This document shows positions 11,150 to 52,520 of a stretch of DNA of 64,000 bases, piece after piece. Under the pieces are notes generated by a model. The model had not been told where the DNA came from and ran no database searches. It saw only the letters and a program-made list of their open reading frames with translations. Position 1 is the first letter of the stretch; every line of letters begins with the position of its first letter. The stretch is from positions 1 through 64,000 of the IMG/VR virus record IMGVR_UViG_3300029288_000132, one strand, 5' to 3'. A program made the translations under genes and the position numbers. The stretch is from a virus. Taxonomy: Duplodnaviria; Caudoviricetes.

Positions 11150-13072
11150 CTAAGTGGGTAAGTCATCTTGGCTAATATCAGTATCATTTTCACCTGCTAT
11201 AGCCATCGGTTGTCCTTTAAGGACATTCTTGATTTCAGCAATAGCCTCATTACGGTCTTTTTCCGGTACAGACCATTCAACCAACAAACCTTCACTACTG
11301 TTTACATCCTCAGTCAATATATCGCTATCTTTTGGTAGTGATCTTGTGAGGCCATCCAACTCCTTAGATTCTAATAAGAATTGGAATGGATTTGAAGCCC
11401 TCCTAGCACGCTGCGATACTTTAACCAAATTACTATATCGCTTCTTACGTCTGGCGTCTTTACGTATCTCCAAAATTACCTTACGTTCGATCTTCCTACC
11501 TTCTATCTCGAATTCCTCTTCGCCGCCTTCTTCCTCACCCTCATCACCTCCTTCACCTTCCCCTCCACCTCCTTCGCCGGTATCAACATCCACGTCCATA
11601 TCAAAATCATCACCCTCTCCGCCACCTAAATCACCGCCCATATCCCCTCCGATGCCACCACCACTTTCTCCGCCTTCTCCCCCTTCTGATTCTTCTTCAG
11701 CTAATTCTTCCATCTCCTGAATTTCATCAGGTGATAAGTCAGTAAACCTAGTAACTATCCAAGTCTTCGGGAACCAACCAATTTCTTTCAAATCAGCCAT
11801 TACGCTAACTCTAGTAGCCCATGTCTCCATCCTATAGAGATCATCAAGCGCCGAGCTAGAAGCCAAGGATAGGCTGAATCCCTTAATATCTTGAACAGTA
11901 TATCCACGTAAAGCGAGATGAATAATTCCTATTTTCTGTAGACTAAGAGCTATTTCAGATTGCACCCATTGGACTGCTTTAGCAAATTCGGCATCTGATT
12001 GTGCCAATGATTTCTCGTTTGGTTCGCCAGCCCCTTCGCCAATACCAACCCTAGCAAACGGTATCTTCAAGGGAGAAATCATCTTCTTCTTGAAGTATTC
12101 GATATCGGATATCTTATCCATGTTCTCGCCACCAGGGAGAACCTCAATATCTGGCCCAGAACCATCAGGACGCACCGGTAGGAAGAAATCGTCTTCTTGA
12201 ACAATCGGTGAGAAACGCTCATCAAATGTGCCGGTGGTAGGATTATAAAACCTCTGTCTCTTAAACATTCGAGCAATGCTTAATAGATATTCGGGAATTT
12301 CCTTAGGAGGAATCATTCCTACCGGAATTTTGTATTTTCGCTTCTCCGGTCCTCTTGTAATCCTGTAAATGAGCGAGGCATCTTCCATAAGTCTCAATTG
12401 CTTGAATGGCTTACGGGAACCGTCTATAATAGCCCTACCGTATGGCGCATAGACCGATTCGAAATTCGTCAGACGCATATGCATACAAGACCATGGGTGC
12501 ATAAACACCGGTTCTGGATACATATCGTCTTGATAAAAGAACCCTACTAGGTCGCCAAACCTTGTCTCGATGCGTGTGAAGTTGTAAATGTTCATGAACC
12601 GCAGCGACGAAATACCTGTACGGTTTCTGTCAGTGACAACTTCAAACGCAGCGTCACCAAATTTACAGAGATATCTAGCAGCCGGACGCAGCCAGCGATC
12701 GATGAGTAATGTGTCGAAGAATAATTCCTCTAGCTCTTCTTTTATTCTTCGGTTCGCAGCTCGAATAATCAACCCATGCTTATATTCTGGGTCGATAAGA
12801 CTACATTCATCAGAATAAAGATCTAACGCAAGCGAAATTTCGCCGGTCTGATCCATCTGCTCATAATCTTTATATCTCTCCAAGCGATTGATTTGGAGAT
12901 TCGTTTGCTGGAGAATTGCATTTTGACTTGAGAAATCTAGGAAGTCCCCGCCGACAGCTAGCTTATCTATAGAAGACTGATCTTGTAATATCCGTTCTTG
13001 CTGGTATATACGGTTAGAGCGGGTAAATTCCCTAATACGATCCCAAACTAACCAATTTGCGGGCATAGCCAA
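11150..13072 (-). CDS. Portal protein (T4 gp20-like)
   Basis: YKDYEQMD..EISLALD, RLMEDASLIYRITRGPEKR..KIPVG..P, EDDFFLP.R, LPGGEN, DIEYFKKK..L.IP; acidic Gly-rich C-terminal extension. Confidence 0.93.
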   Translation of the reverse strand: MAMPANWLVWDRIREFTRSNRIYQQERILQDQSSIDKLAVGGDFLDFSSQNAILQQTNLQINRLERYKDYEQMDQTGEISLALDLYSDECSLIDPEYKHGLIIRAANRRIKEELEELFFDTLLIDRWLRPAARYLCKFGDAAFEVVTDRNRTGISSLRFMNIYNFTRIETRFGDLVGFFYQDDMYPEPVFMHPWSCMHMRLTNFESVYAPYGRAIIDGSRKPFKQLRLMEDASLIYRITRGPEKRKYKIPVGMIPPKEIPEYLLSIARMFKRQRFYNPTTGTFDERFSPIVQEDDFFLPVRPDGSGPDIEVLPGGENMDKISDIEYFKKKMISPLKIPFARVGIGEGAGEPNEKSLAQSDAEFAKAVQWVQSEIALSLQKIGIIHLALRGYTVQDIKGFSLSLASSSALDDLYRMETWATRVSVMADLKEIGWFPKTWIVTRFTDLSPDEIQEMEELAEEESEGGEGGESGGGIGGDMGGDLGGGEGDDFDMDVDVDTGEGGGGEGEGGDEGEEEGGEEEFEIEGRKIERKVILEIRKDARRKKRYSNLVKVSQRARRASNPFQFLLESKELDGLTRSLPKDSDILTEDVNSSEGLLVEWSVPEKDRNEAIAEIKNVLKGQPMAIAGENDTDISQDDLPT

Positions 13073-13076
13073 CCTG

Positions 13077-13085
13077 TGCTATAAT
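13077..13085 (+). promoter_or_regulatory. Extended -10 sigma70-type promoter (TGcTATAAT)
   Basis: Perfect TGnTATAAT about 60 nt upstream of the antisense nuclease gene. Confidence 0.6.
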
Positions 13086-13126
13086 TTAAAGTATTTTTAA
13101 GTGCAGATACCTCTAACAGTGGCATA

Positions 13127-14875
13127 TTGTATCTACTAGGTAAAATGATTGACTGGATAGAAACAGAACGAGAGTTTGGATATTCAGAGATACCTAATAA
13201 CAAGCGTCCGAAAGTTATTTGCCGTTGTGATACTTGTCAAAAACCGCGTACCATTGCTATAAGAATCAAAAGCACAATAATAAATGGTCAGATGCCTTGG
13301 CTATGTCCGTCTTGTGTCAAGAAATTAGAGTCAGATCAGATATCTATAAGAATGAAGAAACAATGGGAGGATAATAAATATCGCCAAAGAAGGACTGCTG
13401 GGACAGCAGCTTTATTGAAAAGTGAAACTTTCAGAGAAAAACAAAAACTCGCAACGAAAAAAAGCATGAAGAATGTCGATGTTTCGTCGATATTAAAGGA
13501 AAGATACAAAGATCCAGCAGCCAGAGAGAAGATTAGAAAAGCATCTACTAAAGCTTGGCAAAATAAAGAACTACGTGCCTTACATTTATTGATTATGCGG
13601 TCGTCAGCCATACGTGTGCTATGTTCGGACGGTACAAAAGCTGCCTGGAAGACCGAAGAATACAAAGAGAAAATGCGTCTTTCTCATCTATCGCTAAGAC
13701 AACATATGTCTGAATGTGGAAAACAATTATGGAAAAGCGTTGAGTATAGAGAGAAGATTGCTGCATATTGGAATGACCCAGAGTTCTTAAAAAAACACGC
13801 AAAAGCTGTCTCTGCTATATCGAAAGAACTCTGGAAGAATGAGACATACAGAAATAGAGTATCATCGGCTGTCCGAGCTGCGCTAGCAACACCAGAAGCT
13901 AAAGCTAGATTATCACAAAATTCAAAGCTCGTTTGGGAGCGACACGACTACCGTAAAAAACTCGCGATCGCTAGGGCTGCTCAATTAGGTCGCACATCGT
14001 CTATTCAAAAGATGCTGTACGAATTCTTAGATAATTTCGATATACCATATTTCAAAGAAGGCGAACAGACACGGATAGGGTATTTTGTATTCGACTGCCT
14101 GATACCGAACATCGGTCATAAAAATTTACTAATTGAATGTCAAGGCGACTATTGGCATTCTCTTTCTAATGCCGAAAGGAACGATAAAGCTAAATTTACA
14201 TATATCGAGCGATATTTTCCAGAATATGAAATCATGTATGTTTGGGAACACGAATTTTATTGCAAAGACCGAGTTCTCGATAGGTTGAAGTTAAAACTCG
14301 GCTTGAACATAGAAACGAAAGAATTCAATTTCTCCGATCTCATAATCGAAGAAGCGAATGCAGATGAAGTTAAAGGATTTTTAGACCGCTATCATTATAT
14401 CGGGAAAGGGCGTGGTGGAAGAGCAATAGGTGCTTATTTAGATGGTGCACTAATTGCTGTAGTTATTTTCAGTCCGCCGCTACGACAGAACACAGCTGGC
14501 CAATTTGGATTGCAAGACGGGGAAGTTCGGGAATTATCAAGACTATGTATACATCCGTCGTATCACAAAGACAACTTCGCGACCTGGTTGATAAGTAGAA
14601 CATTAAGGTTTATTGATTGTAAGCTTATAATTGCATATGCTGATACAACAGTCGGACATACTGGTACGATCTATAAAGCAAGCAATTTTGAATTACATCA
14701 CACCGTTCCTGCTGATTATTGGTATATTGACCCAAAAGGATATGTGATGCATAAACGGACTCTCTATGGCAGAGCCAGAAGCCTTCAGATGACCGAATAT
14801 GAATTCGCTGAAAAATATGGTTATATTAAGAAATATGGCGGCGAAAAACTATGTTTCATTAAACGAATTAATTGA
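13127..14875 (+). CDS. Hef-like homing-endonuclease fusion: helical repeats, Vsr/DUF559-like PD-(D/E)xK nuclease and Mom-like GNAT domain
   Basis: FDCLIP...LIECQGDYWH...YVWE (Vsr-like); FLDRYHY...ELSRLC...IAYADTTVGHTGTIYKASNF (Mom-like). Antisense to its neighbours. Probable start ATG 13145. Confidence 0.75.
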   Translation: MYLLGKMIDWIETEREFGYSEIPNNKRPKVICRCDTCQKPRTIAIRIKSTIINGQMPWLCPSCVKKLESDQISIRMKKQWEDNKYRQRRTAGTAALLKSETFREKQKLATKKSMKNVDVSSILKERYKDPAAREKIRKASTKAWQNKELRALHLLIMRSSAIRVLCSDGTKAAWKTEEYKEKMRLSHLSLRQHMSECGKQLWKSVEYREKIAAYWNDPEFLKKHAKAVSAISKELWKNETYRNRVSSAVRAALATPEAKARLSQNSKLVWERHDYRKKLAIARAAQLGRTSSIQKMLYEFLDNFDIPYFKEGEQTRIGYFVFDCLIPNIGHKNLLIECQGDYWHSLSNAERNDKAKFTYIERYFPEYEIMYVWEHEFYCKDRVLDRLKLKLGLNIETKEFNFSDLIIEEANADEVKGFLDRYHYIGKGRGGRAIGAYLDGALIAVVIFSPPLRQNTAGQFGLQDGEVRELSRLCIHPSYHKDNFATWLISRTLRFIDCKLIIAYADTTVGHTGTIYKASNFELHHTVPADYWYIDPKGYVMHKRTLYGRARSLQMTEYEFAEKYGYIKKYGGEKLCFIKRIN

Positions 14876-46812: not shown

Positions 46813-47367
46813 TCAGTAGCCTTCTGACGCGGAGCTATCTGATGTAGAATCGGCCCAATCGTATGCAATAGTTACATCGATCACCTTTATCTCGGTAGCA
46901 GTATATGTCAGATCGCCCTCTTTAACGCTCTGCGGCCAGCTACCATAAAGAGTCCAAGTAGTCCATGATGAGAAATCTAGATTATAAACCTTGATGACGG
47001 AATCTTTTTTATAGTCAACTGGACTATTGAGACCGGTCTTCACCGACCATACCTTCTCACGCCAATCCTTAATAATCTGTGATGCCTTATTAGAGCCTAC
47101 CACAACATCATAGAACGTGATTCTGATATCTTCCCAAGTAACCATTCCAGCATATTTATAAACGAGCGAAGAACCATCAACGGTATCTTTCGTGATTGTA
47201 AAAGTAGGTAGTGTCGCCTCTTTTGCTAACAATTTTGTTGGGAATAAGTTCCGATTGTCCTCAAATAGATTAATGATCTCCCAAGTATATTGGTAAACAG
47301 GCTTCAGATTATTCTCTGTAGCTGCAATTCCAGTACCGACATCTGTAGCAACTATGAATCCTGGCGT
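46813..47367 (-). CDS. Tail tube protein paralog 3 (gp19-like), proposed ACG start
   Basis: GGGAG-aatatt-ACG CCA GGA TTC; YKYAGMVTWEDIRITFYD, YGSWPQSV..GDLTY, IAYDWA. Confidence 0.75.
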   Translation of the reverse strand, partial: TPGFIVATDVGTGIAATENNLKPVYQYTWEIINLFEDNRNLFPTKLLAKEATLPTFTITKDTVDGSSLVYKYAGMVTWEDIRITFYDVVVGSNKASQIIKDWREKVWSVKTGLNSPVDYKKDSVIKVYNLDFSSWTTWTLYGSWPQSVKEGDLTYTATEIKVIDVTIAYDWADSTSDSSASEGY

Positions 47368-47377
47368 AATATTCTCC

Positions 47378-47914
47378 CTATGTAGCTGGTGCCTGATCTT
47401 TAACTTCGATTTTCTCTTCAGTTGACTTATCCATCTCCAAGGTAAATGTGATTTCGGATATCTTAGACGAAGTGTAATCAAGCTCATCCGGAGTTACTTT
47501 AGACGGCCAGCAACCATGCATTGTATATCTATAGATAGCAGCACCAGTGCCATTAAGCATTTCCAACGTACAGGTGCGTTTTCTAAGGTTAATCTGCGAC
47601 CGGTTGATGTTTATAACACCAGTCGACCACCATTGATAAATCTGGAAGGCGGCGTCGGTATTAGTGACGACGTGATAGAAACTTATTTCTATTGGTGTCC
47701 ACTTCTGCTTACCAGGGAAATAGACACAATCTTGCTGGTAGTGTAAAGTCGCCTTATCGAATTCTACCCTTGGCCTACCAGACTTATGGGCATATAATAA
47801 TATGTCTTTTAGAGGATCAAGGGTAGCAAACTTCCAACGATGCTGGCGTGCCACTTCGACCGTAGCTCCGGGTTGCTGTGCTTGGTTGTTCTGGCCGATA
47901 TTGAATCCTGGCAA
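47378..47914 (-). CDS. Tail tube protein paralog 2 (gp19-like), TTG start
   Basis: AGGAG-agattct-TTG CCA GGA TTC; YFPGKQKWTPIEISFY, GCWPSKV...LDY, LEMD. Confidence 0.85.
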   Translation of the reverse strand: MPGFNIGQNNQAQQPGATVEVARQHRWKFATLDPLKDILLYAHKSGRPRVEFDKATLHYQQDCVYFPGKQKWTPIEISFYHVVTNTDAAFQIYQWWSTGVININRSQINLRKRTCTLEMLNGTGAAIYRYTMHGCWPSKVTPDELDYTSSKISEITFTLEMDKSTEEKIEVKDQAPAT

Positions 47915-47990
47915 AGAATCTCTCCTGACGTATAGAGCAAGACATCACAGAACAACTACTTTAAGTTTGATATGAATGTTATATATACGA

Positions 47991-48016
47991 AGAAGGCCAG
48001 CAATTGCTGGCCTTCT
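47991..48016. terminator. Perfect 26-bp palindrome/hairpin after the tube gene
   Basis: agaaggccagcaattgctggccttct. Confidence 0.65.
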
Positions 48017-48037
48017 ATATCGCTGAATGGCGGATGG

Positions 48038-48544
48038 CTAGCCTTTGATAGCCCGATCATACCGCAACGTCGCTTCGATTGTCACGATATCAGTCGCTGT
48101 ATAATCCAGATCACCCCAGTTGACTTCCTTGGGCCATGCATTACACATAGTCCATGTCTCGGTCGTGTTCCCAGCAGCACCGATCATCTCCAATGTCGCC
48201 TGTTGCTTATATGCTGACGGAGCGTAAACGGTGGCTGTCGGCAGATCGACAACGGTGTTCAACCATTGGTAAATCGTGTCCGACACGTCGGGATTCTGTT
48301 CGACGTCATACCACTTCATGCTGACCGGTTCCCAGGTCTGCTTACCGGCAAAGTAAGCTACTTCCTGGTCATGGTGCATTTCTGGTTCTGCGAACTTGAA
48401 ATTCGGACGTGAGGCGGATTGCAAAACAAGCAACGCCGCAGGGTTCACTGATCCAAGCGTTCGGAAAACCCAACGGTGTTTTCTGCGAGTTTCCAAGTTG
48501 GCGGCTGGGCCATTACCAGTACCACAGATATTGAATCCAGGAAT
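48038..48544 (-). CDS. Major tail tube protein (gp19-like), proposed ATT start
   Basis: AAGGAG-accctgaca-ATT CCT GGA TTC; YFAGKQTWEPVSMKWYD, NAWPKEVNWGDLDY, TLRYDRA. Confidence 0.88.
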   Translation of the reverse strand: MPGFNICGTGNGPAANLETRRKHRWVFRTLGSVNPAALLVLQSASRPNFKFAEPEMHHDQEVAYFAGKQTWEPVSMKWYDVEQNPDVSDTIYQWLNTVVDLPTATVYAPSAYKQQATLEMIGAAGNTTETWTMCNAWPKEVNWGDLDYTATDIVTIEATLRYDRAIKG

Positions 48545-48572
48545 TGTCAGGGTCTCCTTCACGTGATACAAT
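48544..48572 (+). promoter_or_regulatory. Sigma70-type promoter TTGTCA-17-TACAAT for the HNH gene
   Basis: -35 at 48544-48549, -10 at 48567-48572 with an extended TG; overlaps the tube SD on the opposite strand. Confidence 0.7.
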
Positions 48573-48604
48573 GGACATTGTGGCTTCTAGCACTGGAATA
48601 TTAC

Positions 48605-49600
48605 ATGCGAGATCTCAAATCCGAGTACCAAAGGCTCCATCAACATCGCATTGCTTTTAATTTATGTTTGATGTGTGGTGGTCCCCGTGATTCAGAAAAA
48701 TCGTCCTGCTCTAAATGTCTGACAAGAAAAAGCGAAAGACGAAAAGCTGCTCGTAAAGCTAGACAAGCTATTGGTGTCTGCTTATGTGGCCGACCAATTT
48801 CAAAAGGGAAGATGTGCGACAGATGTAAGGAGAAGAGTAAAAGAGAAAGAGTAATACACGACAAACGTTGGGCTGCTAAAGGACTTTGCCCTAGGTGCGG
48901 TAAAGATCCGCTCCCTGGTAAGATTTATTGTACTACTCACGCTACCTATCAAACGTCGATTATTATGAAACGATACAATAATCGCAGACTAAGCAACCAA
49001 TGTACTGTCTGTGGTAATGATTTGGTTGTTGGTGAATCGATACGTTGCAAGTCTTGCAACGGCATCCATGTAGAGGCCAGTAGACGCAAGTGGCACAGAG
49101 ATCGCAAGAAAGTTTTAGACCATTATGGTGCTAAATGTGCTTGTTGTGGTGAAACAACTTATGAATTCTTGGAGGTAGATCACATAGACGGAGACGGAGT
49201 AAAACACAGGAAAATTACTGGTAGACATATTACATCTTGGATTATTAGAAACAAGTTCCCAGATTGGCTAAGGTTATTGTGTGCTAATTGCAATCGCGGA
49301 ATCGGCCATTATAAAACATGTCCGCATAAAACAGAACCACAAATGCCGCATTCTCCATCTGGTAGAAGGGCCAGAAACAGACGCTTAAAAGTTATCGCTC
49401 ATTATGGCGGCAAATGCGTTTGTTGTGGCGAATCGAATTGGGCTTTTCTAGAATTCGACCATATCAATAACGACGGTGCCAAGCATCGTAAAGCAATAGG
49501 GCAGTTAAAGCCAGAGTGGATTATTGCAAACGGCTATCCTGATTATCTACAATTATTGTGTGCTAATTGCAATAAAGCTAAAGGTCTTTATGGCAATTAG
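48605..49600 (+). CDS. Free-standing endonuclease with CxxC repeats and two HNH-like domains
   Basis: YGAKCACCGE...LEVDHID...LLCANCN and YGGKCVCCGE...LEFDHIN...LLCANCN. Start revised to ATG 48605. Confidence 0.85.
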   Translation: MRDLKSEYQRLHQHRIAFNLCLMCGGPRDSEKSSCSKCLTRKSERRKAARKARQAIGVCLCGRPISKGKMCDRCKEKSKRERVIHDKRWAAKGLCPRCGKDPLPGKIYCTTHATYQTSIIMKRYNNRRLSNQCTVCGNDLVVGESIRCKSCNGIHVEASRRKWHRDRKKVLDHYGAKCACCGETTYEFLEVDHIDGDGVKHRKITGRHITSWIIRNKFPDWLRLLCANCNRGIGHYKTCPHKTEPQMPHSPSGRRARNRRLKVIAHYGGKCVCCGESNWAFLEFDHINNDGAKHRKAIGQLKPEWIIANGYPDYLQLLCANCNKAKGLYGN

Positions 49601-49637
49601 CACACAATAATTGTAGATAATCACCTATGATATAGGA

Positions 49638-49676: not shown

Positions 49677-52520
49677 CTATCTCCCGCTCACCACAACTCC
49701 GCCTGCTGCCAGGACTTCCTCGGAACTGAACGATGCCGAAGATTGCATGACTACCAGGTTGAGCACGATGAATTCAATCGCACGCGTCGGTTTGATGAAC
49801 ACCGACACCCATAATTGGTTCATGTCACGCCGCTGTGGAGTGTTATTCGACTCATCGCACACCACATTGTAAGCATCCAATCCACGTCGGGCTTGAATGT
49901 CAGCCATGAATGGATTGATAAGCGTTCGAACTTGTGCCCAAGTCGTAGAGTCGTTCGGCTCAAACACAAAAGCCCGAAGTGTCTGTACCAAATTCTTCTT
50001 TAGGTAGATCAGCAGCATCCGTACATTAACCCGGTCGAGAGCCGTCTCGGTACGCTGTAGCGTCCGCTGGCCGAAGACCACGATACCATCCTTCGGGAAT
50101 GCAACCAATGGGTTTACGGCATTGCCGCTACCATATAACAAGTCACGCTCGCCTTGACTCGGGTTGTATTCGACAGCCAAAGGCGTCAGCAACTTGCCAC
50201 GATTGATACCAGCGGGAGCCATCCACTGATCGGCCACTCTCGACGTACGAGCGAAAACCGAACCAACATGCCCAGATGGCGGAACCCAGATGTTTTGTTT
50301 GCTGAATTGATCGTAGATTTCTAACCAGCCCCAGTATAGAGCACCGTAGCTGCTATTGATTGCATGAGACAAATCAGAAAGCAACATGCCGTTATGCCAG
50401 TCGACGACCTGCTGTGGCCGAAGTCCAAACGGAGGATCAACCAAATAGAGCACATCACCACGGCTTTCGCACAGTTGCAGACCTTGACCGATCACCGCAC
50501 CAGATGTCATACCAGGGATGATGAGCAAGTTGATGTCGAATGTCTCGGAGTTCTGGACACCGTACATGCCGCTCGAATCTTGCGGATTGCCGATAATTGC
50601 GGCATCGAGTTCGCTCGAAAACGCTGGATCGGCAGGAATACCATTAGCACCGCCGCTGAATATATGGCTCGTAAGCTGGGCTGGTTGCCTGACTTCATAG
50701 GTGCTCGGATCGAGTTCGTCATTGTTCAAGAATGCCGGGCGATCCTCCCAGTTGACGTAATCGTTACCGTTAGTACCGCCATAAACAGTACCAGGATTCA
50801 AGACATTTCCGATATAACGAGCATCGGTCTTGTCAAAGCTGATGTTCTGTACATTATCAGCAGTAGCACCATTCGGATCAGTAACAACCAATTGATAGCG
50901 TGCAGCTGGATTACCAGCGATTTGCGTTTGCAGAGCAAGTGTCAGAGTATAATCATCAAGCCACGTTCCGGCACTTGTCGCAACAAACCAACCGACAATG
51001 TTTTGGAAATATGCAGCATCCAAAGCACATTCTGGGCCGCTCGGATCTAACTCGCAGGACAACGGCACGGCGGGTGTCACTTCGCCAGTTGCCGGTAGTG
51101 AGACGCGACTATCATAGAACCCACGGTATGCCTTCGTGTATGGTGAAAGAATACCAAGCTCTTCTGCAAACGTCAACGTCTTAAGATTCGAATAACTGGC
51201 TTTTAGCTGTAGCTGATCCAATTGGTGTGAATCAGACGTCACGATAACGACATGCTGGATATTTCCAGGAGCCGTGATTGCAAACGATGTGAAGTACGTG
51301 TCGCCAGCATATGTGCCATTTCCATTGATCGCAGCCGCAATTGTGGCAGCAGATAAATTTGTCCCTGTCAAAATCGTGAAAGCGATGCTGACCGTCGTGC
51401 TTCTATCTGCCGGAATTATGTCGATTGCGATGCGATTGCTTTGGCTGTTGATGAAGTACGGCTCGGCGTCGGTCCCAAACAGGAAGCTACGTGGGATATC
51501 ATAGACGTATTGTTCTGTTCCGACTTCCTTCGCAAAGGCACACGAGCTGGTGAGTTGAATGCGATGGCCAGCTACTTTCGTGCGAAGTTCCGGATAACCA
51601 TCACTATTAACAACAGCAACATAATCCTCGACGGTGACGAGCAAATTGATCGCATCGACGAGATCAGCCGCAGTCGTATAGGTAGCGGCTGGCATAATAT
51701 AAGGACTGCCAGTACCCTCAACTTCAACCTCGAATGCCCTATTGTATGGCTTAGCGGTGAAAGAGAATACATCATTGGTATCCAGCCGTCCACTCGTAAC
51801 CAGGATGTTGCAGACGAGCCCTTCACCGATTTCGATGTTGGTGCTGGTACCGGGTACCTTCTCGGATAAAACACCACTGACCATCAAAGCACTGTCTCGG
51901 CTACGGAATAATTGGAATGTGGCTCCGCTGATGGCGAACCCAGTATCTGGCCTTCCGGTGATGAACAAAGAGAAAGTGTCGTCGAGACAGCCGGTGTAAC
52001 TGTCGCTCAAATCAGTTTCACCGTCGAATTGTAATGTCGCGTCTGTTGGGCCTTCCGTAACTGACACACTCACATCAGTGAATTCGATGTTTTCGACCCC
52101 AGCGTCATGGAATATGACGGGGGATGACGTAGACACAGCCCTCAGTTGAAGCTTGCCGTAATCGATTCCAGTGAAGACCGGAATACGGCTCCAACCGTTG
52201 ATTCGGCTCCCAGATGTATCGATACAGACATCATTCAGTTCATCAGGCTGACCATCTTGGCATTCAATGCCAACTCGAATGACATATGCTTGGTTGCTCT
52301 CTTCCAAGTAAGCAAGCACCGCATACATCAAATAGCTCTCGACAAACGGCTCACCGAAGATGTCGATTGCCTGTTGTGCACCTGTCACAAAGGTCGGAGT
52401 ATTCATAGGACCTTTTTTGGCGGTGCCGACAAAAGCCGCACGGAGTGGTCCGGCGTTGCCAGTGACTGCGCTAAGGTCTATTTCCCTTGGATAAACACCA
52501 GGGCTCAGATATGTGGGCAT
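49677..52520 (-). CDS. Tail sheath protein (gp18-like)
   Basis: YLSPGVYPREID, GTAKKGP, VPPSG, WMAPAGINRG, RDLLY..GNAVNP, VFGQRTL, RVNVRML, VFEPND, KPTRAIEFI. Confidence 0.96.
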   Translation of the reverse strand: MPTYLSPGVYPREIDLSAVTGNAGPLRAAFVGTAKKGPMNTPTFVTGAQQAIDIFGEPFVESYLMYAVLAYLEESNQAYVIRVGIECQDGQPDELNDVCIDTSGSRINGWSRIPVFTGIDYGKLQLRAVSTSSPVIFHDAGVENIEFTDVSVSVTEGPTDATLQFDGETDLSDSYTGCLDDTFSLFITGRPDTGFAISGATFQLFRSRDSALMVSGVLSEKVPGTSTNIEIGEGLVCNILVTSGRLDTNDVFSFTAKPYNRAFEVEVEGTGSPYIMPAATYTTAADLVDAINLLVTVEDYVAVVNSDGYPELRTKVAGHRIQLTSSCAFAKEVGTEQYVYDIPRSFLFGTDAEPYFINSQSNRIAIDIIPADRSTTVSIAFTILTGTNLSAATIAAAINGNGTYAGDTYFTSFAITAPGNIQHVVIVTSDSHQLDQLQLKASYSNLKTLTFAEELGILSPYTKAYRGFYDSRVSLPATGEVTPAVPLSCELDPSGPECALDAAYFQNIVGWFVATSAGTWLDDYTLTLALQTQIAGNPAARYQLVVTDPNGATADNVQNISFDKTDARYIGNVLNPGTVYGGTNGNDYVNWEDRPAFLNNDELDPSTYEVRQPAQLTSHIFSGGANGIPADPAFSSELDAAIIGNPQDSSGMYGVQNSETFDINLLIIPGMTSGAVIGQGLQLCESRGDVLYLVDPPFGLRPQQVVDWHNGMLLSDLSHAINSSYGALYWGWLEIYDQFSKQNIWVPPSGHVGSVFARTSRVADQWMAPAGINRGKLLTPLAVEYNPSQGERDLLYGSGNAVNPLVAFPKDGIVVFGQRTLQRTETALDRVNVRMLLIYLKKNLVQTLRAFVFEPNDSTTWAQVRTLINPFMADIQARRGLDAYNVVCDESNNTPQRRDMNQLWVSVFIKPTRAIEFIVLNLVVMQSSASFSSEEVLAAGGVVVSGR

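Follow-up and report, generated by a model that had tools for sequence, protein, structure and literature searches.

Bacterial genes that begin at AUU or AUA, such as infC (for IF3) and pcnB of Escherichia coli or cvfC1, ccpN and infC of Staphylococcus aureus, place a near-cognate codon that is read by the initiator tRNA behind a strong and well-spaced Shine-Dalgarno (SD) site, with no canonical alternative (PMC13009471; bioRxiv 10.1101/063800), and in infC, pcnB, cvfC1 and ccpN the weak codon is conserved and lowers or regulates expression. Intronless homing also follows an accepted logic: the endonuclease-bearing allele has another sequence where cleavage would occur (PMC12724721, PMC2790892, PMC2330249), the acquiring allele turns resistant as donor sequence replaces that site (PMC12724721), and homing endonuclease genes cluster beside essential phage genes (PMC10448857). 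Here, both kinds of system are compared with one locus in a 64,000-nt stretch of phage DNA (IMG/VR record IMGVR_UViG_3300029288_000132, positions 1 to 64,000; the window hereafter), where three tandem tail tube paralogs are preceded by a putative HNH homing endonuclease gene. Comparison with homologous genes confirms the predicted starts of all three paralogs at near-cognate or weak codons directly before Pro-Gly-Phe (the x of x-Pro-Gly-Phe), although tube 3 may start one codon further upstream. Judging by the aligned alleles, these start codons evolve fast and are not a conserved regulatory code, and we lean towards the explanation that initiation at the weak codons is real and that ATG was lost as target-site immunity against the nuclease.

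The tube genes differ from the infC/pcnB type in that they encode abundant structural proteins, that their codon follows a mobile nuclease gene and is not the same in near-identical strains, and that no feedback through IF3 is evident. For the nuclease, the closest systems are the free-standing SegB, SegF, SegG and mobE of T-even phages (PMC2330249, PMC2790892, PMC2988022) and the intron-borne HNH enzymes I-HmuI/II of SPO1/SP82. As in T-even homing and marker exclusion, an HNH gene sits in the spacer beside a conserved essential gene, occurs sporadically among relatives and travels with its flanking polymorphisms. Unlike there, immunity is proposed to come from altered start codons, both in the essential gene next to the nuclease and in a paralog of that gene, and the cleavage is one that we infer; in addition, the Pfam HNH model stays below threshold on the protein, which only PHROG profiles recognise. 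No paper linking homing endonucleases to start-codon changes was found in the literature.

The source contig, 88 kb long, is part of the genome of an uncultured jumbo phage from landfill metagenomes, and related contigs reach 364–388 kb. On the minus strand of the window, the tail sheath gene (49677..52520; ATG 52520 behind GGAG-attagaca, then CCC) is followed by the three tube paralogs and a baseplate-hub gene (PF12322, 45726-46751), so the trio lies directly after the sheath and before baseplate genes, as expected for a gp19-type tube. All three paralogs match the gp19-type tube profile PF06841 (35.2, 37.7 and 35.7 bits against a Pfam gathering cutoff of 28.2) and phrog_4542, 'tail tube protein' (E 1e-19 to 4e-25). 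Their likeness to T4 gp19 and to the tubes Pvc1/Afp1 of extracellular contractile injection systems (PDB 5iv5, 6j0b) consists of PF06841 and the sheath-then-tube gene order, whereas the sequence matches are only weak (E 1e-5 to 0.01) and the phage differs in having three tube genes in a row, which share a conserved N-terminus, MPGF. Among phage records, blastn gave no match and protein matches came only from distant jumbo phages at 24–33% identity, while a PDB sequence search with the three tubes returned weak matches that gave no pointer to which paralog is the major tube.

Each of the three putative start codons is followed by CCN GGA TTC (Pro-Gly-Phe). Tube 1, the probable major tube protein (48038..48544, minus strand, 168 codons; PF06841 E=1.3e-8, phrog_4542 E=4e-25), would run from ATT 48544-48542 to TAG 48040-48038, with the SD site AAGGAG (48554..48559, minus strand) placed 9 nt before the ATT and CCT GGA TTC after it; once Met is removed, its predicted N-terminus is PGFNICGTGNGPAANLETR. 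Tube 2 (47378..47914, minus strand) would start at TTG 47914 and stop at TAG 47380-47378, its SD site AGGAG (47926-47922, minus strand) standing 7 nt before a TTG that has ten open codons upstream of it without any other canonical codon. Tube 3 (46813..47370, minus strand) would begin at ATT 47370 (M-T-P-G-F) or ACG 47367 (M-P-G-F), and its SD site GGGAG (47378-47374, minus strand), which overlaps the tube 2 stop, leaves 3 nt to the ATT and 6 nt to the ACG. The N-termini predicted after Met removal are PGFNIGQ for tube 2 and either TPGFIVATDVG (ATT) or PGFIVATDVG (ACG) for tube 3. The coordinates and motifs that the sequence-only reading had given for the three tubes and for the sheath ATG behind its GGAG are all exact in the sequence.

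The x position was followed through about 180 homologous tube genes on about 100 contigs (viral contigs L001-L034 and metagenome contigs L121-L191; a second viral-contig scan queried with tube 3 brought no new contigs). The codon found there was ATG in 127 genes, GTG in 17, ATT in 14, TTG in 14, ACG in six and ATA in three, with no others, and every alternative is a single-base neighbour of ATG. Val at this position is always encoded by GTG, Leu always by TTG and Thr always by ACG, and because of this restriction x does not qualify as an internal hydrophobic residue. In many relatives, an in-frame stop is situated one to eight codons upstream without an intervening canonical codon (tubes 1 and 2 of L009, both ATT; tube 3 of L010, L011 and L013, ATT; tube 3 of L014, ATA; tube 2 of L018, ACG), and therefore x should be the position of initiation. 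Variation in the codons of P1, G2, F3, N4 and I5 is synonymous, the residues themselves being invariant, which argues that the N-terminus PGFNI is translated. In the window, the in-frame codons TTG 48571 and GTG 48562 upstream of tube 1 both stand without an SD site, as had been claimed, and for tube 3 the claim of no nearby canonical codon was equally borne out, since none occurs within its first 30 codons and the nearest upstream ones (TTG and ATG, 38 and 40 codons away) are inside tube 2. An independent assembly of a landfill run had 0 differences from the window across all three starts, a confirmation of the DNA sequence alone, and strains co-occurring in that run carried ATG and TTG versions of tube 1. 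On this comparative evidence, tube 1 most likely starts at ATT 48544.

The proposal that the three paralogs start at ATT, TTG and ACG thus stands for the homologous position but is doubtful for the ACG, given that an in-frame ATT (47370), overlooked at the time, immediately precedes ACG 47367. An ATT or ATC occupies the codon just upstream in all three independent ACG lineages (the window group, tube 3 of L009 and tube 2 of L018), against only 7/146 canonical-start contexts (~5%). A change of ATG to ACG may thus have been open only to genes with a back-up near-cognate codon beside it, in which case the protein would begin Met-Thr-Pro-Gly-Phe. In E. coli, AUU yields ~1–3% of the output of AUG and codons such as ACG 0.1–1% (bioRxiv 10.1101/063800). 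Spacing counts against ATT 47370: the SD sites lie 3–5 nt from the ATT/ATC and 6–8 nt from the ACG, and in the tube family the distance is 5–9 nt in 89/91 cases. Overall, a start at ATT 47370 is modestly favoured and one at ACG 47367 is rather doubtful; tube 3 has no canonical start whichever of the two codons is used.

The codon of a given paralog is not stable. Among strains whose proteins are 90–98% identical, tube 1 uses ATG, GTG, TTG or ATT, tube 2 ATG, GTG, TTG, ATT or ACG, and tube 3 ATG, TTG, ATT, ATA or ACG, while outgroups (45–65% identical) use ATG almost throughout. The orthologues hence bear out a position restricted to near-ATG codons, and they do not bear out a codon conserved for each paralog, ATG being the most common choice. 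A GGAG/GAGG core 5–9 nt upstream was present in 18/21 non-canonical contexts and in 73/146 canonical ones (Fisher p=0.002); the strong SD site of tube 1 is always kept, and tubes 2 and 3 often have none when they start with ATG or GTG. This pairing of non-canonical codons with strong SD sites, as read from the alignments, is consistent with compensation, and the same pairing is known from S. aureus, where AUU/AUA starts come with extended SD sites (PMC13009471).

For a genome-wide view, ortholog families were built from six genomes (the window contig, G000, and the full sequences of five relatives, G001 to G005), and shared start columns were bounded by upstream stops. In the 142 families with a definable start column, ATG was used 577 times, TTG 30 and GTG 21, and true non-canonical starts were confined to five families, namely the three tubes (7/18 genes), a P-loop kinase and FAM176; because of this confinement, initiation does not appear to be generally relaxed. 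Eleven further candidates (FAM 68, 81, 83, 98, 130, 140, 195, 238, 254, 279 and 281) were rejected as artefacts, with an ATG next to or near the column or with an internal column. A count of codons behind GGAG over the whole genome showed ATG enriched and no visible excess of ATT, ATA or ACG; being noisy, it was replaced by the ortholog columns. The P-loop kinase-like gene (ILIITCGMPGSGKSK; G000:C1:64621-65146, minus strand, outside the window) starts at ATT 65146 behind GGGAGG and 7 nt, abuts the upstream gene so that translational coupling is possible, has no nuclease gene nearby, and starts with ATG, ATC, ATT and ATG in its orthologues. FAM176, a 585-codon gene (G004:C1, minus-strand index 89189), uses ATC in one genome only, behind AAGGAG and 7 nt and with a stop five codons upstream, and its orthologues start with GTG, ATG and GTG.

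The strongest correlate of the non-ATG state is the putative free-standing HNH homing endonuclease gene (48605..49600, plus strand), which had not been recognised in the sequence-only reading. It is divergent from tube 1, lies in the spacer of 1.1 kb that separates the sheath gene from tube 1, and has its start codon 60 bp from that of tube 1. The predicted protein (331 aa) combines N-terminal Zn ribbons with two HNH-like modules, the motif CxxC...DH...N...CN occurring twice in its translation; it matches phrog_2255 'HNH endonuclease' in two stretches (E=5.6e-21) and phrog_4234 (E=2.4e-8), and the Pfam HNH model stays below threshold on it (10.6 bits, E=0.65). At the sheath-tube locus, the gene is present in the window, L002, L010, L013 and L019, missing from L001, L003-5, L008, L009, L011, L014 and L018, and cut down to 35 codons in L006/L007, where a Mom-like nuclease gene has overwritten it; its state changes between present and absent 11 times on the tree of tube 1. 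Homology to the HNH-less L001/L004 runs through the sheath to 49638 and resumes exactly where the tube 1 start codon begins (48544), these being the blastn borders of an inserted segment of 1093 bp (48545..49637) that replaces 78 bp of the L001/L004 spacer. In the pairs L009/L013 and L016/L128, the insertion is just past the sheath stop and 20–30 nt upstream of the tube 1 start. An HNH homologue in L200 (2407-3918) is located between tube 1 and tube 2, before a TTG-started tube 2, and this position indicates that the HNH family can occupy the paralogous site. A sigma-70-like promoter for the HNH gene (TTGTCA-17-TACAAT, 48544-48572, overlapping the tube 1 start codon) was considered and rejected, as seven such sites compare with 6.1 in shuffled sequence and the motif is unconserved in other cassettes.

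The spacer between sheath and tube 1 is also a hot spot for unrelated inserts, among them Mom-like or restriction-endonuclease-like 'homing endonuclease' genes (phrog_3339/559/1384) and genes of phrog_4335/464, whose function is unknown; such inserts were located at L006:1084-2682, L147:2057-2470, L149:807-2324, L151:1034-2479 and L160:398-1972, and in the spacers of L165, L166, L176, L179 and L190. A second recurrent feature is TTAGATTTGAYTGGAGG, followed after 6–8 nt by a non-ATG start and found before tube 1 and tube 2 in L137, L138, L140, L149, L189, L197, L198 and L200; in this distant clade the module lies in the 24 nt before the tube starts, and it looks as if this ribosome-site module had been copied between paralogs.

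All 12 distinct HNH-adjacent tube 1 alleles are non-ATG (ATT 6, TTG 4, GTG 2), whereas tube 1 genes without the nuclease comprise 10 non-ATG and 50 ATG (Fisher p=4e-8), and when the x-PGFNI genes (tubes 1 and 2) are taken together, 18/18 are non-ATG in HNH genomes compared to 17/60 elsewhere (p=2e-8), both tests ignoring shared ancestry. Paralogs that diverge in DNA after PGF may retain ATG in HNH genomes. The candidate target ATGCCNGGNTTYA does not occur in the HNH-bearing G000, G002 and G003 and is found in one to three copies in the HNH-less G001, G004 and G005. A search from the HNH protein added L198, where the tubes start with ATT, TTG and GTG, L199, where a same-strand HNH gene precedes a TTG tube gene, and L200 with its TTG-started tube 2. 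Identical tube 1 proteins are encoded by L006 (HNH remnant, ATT) and L008 (no HNH, ATG). Since the members of the pairs L009/L013 and L016/L128 differ in whether they have the nuclease gene but agree in their ribosome site and non-ATG start, the codon is not merely carried in the insert, and the idea that it is simply part of the inserted DNA was ruled out.

According to the explanation that we prefer, a strong SD site would bring the near-cognate codon to the initiator tRNA in the P site, giving an N-terminus (f)Met-Pro-Gly-Phe, with tube 1 translated from AUU 48544, tube 2 from UUG 47914 and tube 3 from AUU 47370 or ACG 47367. The HNH enzyme would recognise the one invariant DNA stretch of the family, ATG CCN GGN TTY AAY AT, and its gene would be kept only where the genome's own copies of this target are spoiled. 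The start codon would be the only place in the stretch that can be changed with the protein unaltered (ATG to ATT, TTG, GTG or ACG), since near-cognate codons still initiate with Met, and the strong SD site would sustain translation from the weak codon. Nuclease-free phages of the same habitat would then carry either a susceptible allele (ATG) or a resistant one (non-ATG), and the asymmetry seen, with HNH genomes always non-ATG and HNH-less genomes either, is what target-site immunity predicts. The immunity step itself, recognition and cleavage of the ATG site by the HNH protein, is probably how the resistance arose, as we infer, and the pattern suggests that the start codon was changed to escape nuclease cutting rather than to set protein amounts.

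Several points weigh against this explanation. Beyond the shared ancestry that the Fisher tests ignore, an independent-pairs test on the tube 1 tree gave only three well-supported pairs, with which a sign test cannot reach significance, and if the ancestral HNH allele was already non-ATG, inheritance alone would explain part of the 12/12. A single enzyme would have to be blocked both by TTG and GTG, changed at the first codon position, and by ATT, changed at the third, and at the E. coli efficiency of AUU (~1–3% of AUG; bioRxiv 10.1101/063800) the change seems costly for a major tube protein. By sequence, the two in-frame codons upstream of tube 1 (TTG 48571 and GTG 48562) would still offer alternative starts. 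Tubes 2 and 3 of the close clade are mostly non-ATG in HNH-less genomes too, and tube 3 (PGFIV), the P-loop kinase (ATT/ATC) and FAM176 (ATC) have non-canonical starts without a nuclease nearby. Weak codons in such places mean that a second cause must exist, e.g., tolerance under translational coupling; the non-canonical genes without a nearby nuclease are mostly a few nt from the stop of the preceding gene, which may indicate such coupling.

The most serious rival is hitchhiking or drift without immunity, which we consider unlikely. The weak codons would be mildly harmful passengers that are linked to the HNH element or have drifted, strong SD sites and abundant late mRNA would keep the tube protein sufficient, and the nuclease would not read the start codon at all. 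The start codon lies 0–30 nt from the insertion point and hence would be co-converted with the element, non-canonical starts accompany strong SD sites, and the nuclease-free cases just described (two other families, and tubes 2 and 3 in HNH-less close relatives, which are often non-ATG) are readily accommodated. Mere linkage fits less well with the codon exchanges across HNH lineages, whose proteins are 35–77% identical and which change between ATT and TTG/GTG (two steps) and never to ATG, or with the paralog 600 bp away, which is also always non-ATG in HNH genomes if it encodes PGFNI; in the distant clade, PGFNI tube 2 is non-ATG in 2/2 cases with HNH and ATG in all eight HNH-less genes considered. 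Insertion as such is not the cause either: these genomes have 72 further insertions upstream of genes, and since ATG is kept at every one of them, the possibility that any upstream insertion yields a non-ATG start was ruled out. At the sheath-tube spot itself, ATG is kept beside most other kinds of insert (L011, L147, L152, L160, L165, L166, L179 and L190); non-ATG starts accompany three inserts, the Mom-like ones of L149 (ATT) and L151 (GTG) and that of L183 (GTG). Elsewhere in the window, a 582-aa plus-strand gene (13066-14875), which the sequence-only reading took for a fusion of a Vsr-like nuclease with a Mom-like domain, is divergent from a 638-aa portal-like gene and 60 bp from its start; it is present in G000, G002 and G003 and missing from G001 and G004, and the portal-like neighbour starts with ATG in all six genomes.

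Quite improbable is the original suggestion that the weak codons form a code that tunes the ratio of the tubes, or that late tail assembly needs relaxed initiation fidelity under low IF3. Selection on initiation strength is hinted at by the SD pattern (always strong for tube 1, often none for tubes 2 and 3), S. aureus offers cases in which expression is indeed lowered by a weak codon combined with an extended SD site (PMC13009471), and a conserved hairpin after tube 1 could reduce the expression of tubes 2 and 3. This hairpin, situated between tube 1 and tube 2 (47991..48016, minus strand; perfect 11-bp stem, -27.8 kcal/mol, z=-5.2), is 100% identical in L002 and L004, the flanks of which differ by ~15%, and 96% identical in L001; it may serve in termination, attenuation or RNA stability and thereby set tube 1 off against tubes 2 and 3. 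A stoichiometric code is nevertheless not supported by codons that differ, paralog by paralog, between proteins 90–98% identical and that are ATG for all three tubes in the outgroups, and a dependence on relaxed fidelity finds no support in non-canonical starts limited to few genes (5/142 families). The translation machinery points the same way: the C-terminal domain of IF3 (PF00707) was not found in the five related genomes, where other translation factors were not searched, and neither the window nor its contig has tRNA genes. The tRNA(CAT) genes of the relatives (G001:C1:218378-218453, G002:C1:37741-37814, G004:C1:202309-202461 and G005:C1:124302-124375) lack the three G-C anticodon-stem pairs of a classical initiator tRNA and stand among tRNAs that read codons ending in A (Arg-TCT, Leu-TAA, Thr-TGT, Ser-TGA). 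Their type is therefore probably Ile2 or elongator, although a mismatched 1:72 pair, an initiator-like trait, is present in those of G004 and G005.

Least probable by far are canonical starts with x as an internal position (tube 1 at TTG 48571 or GTG 48562, tube 3 at ATG 47487), which can draw on these codons being in frame in the window, on M/I/L/V/T being a plausible substitution set at one internal position and on some tube 2 genes initiating without any SD site, but which are contradicted by the GCG that replaces the tube 1 upstream GTG in L006 and L007, by the complete lack of the upstream codons in L009, L010, L011, L013, L014 and L018 (stops four to eight codons upstream), by the restricted codons for Val, Leu and Thr, by a 40-codon tube 3 extension that is not conserved and overlaps tube 2 out of frame, and by SD sites spaced for x and not for the upstream codons.

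Extended to phage tail tubes in general, target-site immunity is a tentative proposal: homing endonucleases placed before essential structural genes would use the start-codon region, ATG and the invariant codons after it, as their recognition site, with near-cognate codons as the escape alleles, and selfish nucleases would be a widespread, hitherto unnoticed source of rare non-AUG starts in tail tube genes. Equally tentatively, the same process would act on paralogs at once and spread a module of ribosome site and weak codon between them. AUU-type initiation and intronless homing are already known, and what is new is their proposed coupling through start-codon immunity. ATG, GTG and TTG are the only starts accepted by gene callers and curators, and such tube genes are mis-called (extended, truncated or dropped) in the annotation of jumbo phages and metagenomes. 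The tube family provides a natural allelic series (ATG, GTG, TTG, ATT, ATA and ACG in one fixed context) for start-codon strength, and, if the proposed immunity is true, a selfish nuclease would shape the signal from which translation starts in a gene that is essential and highly expressed.

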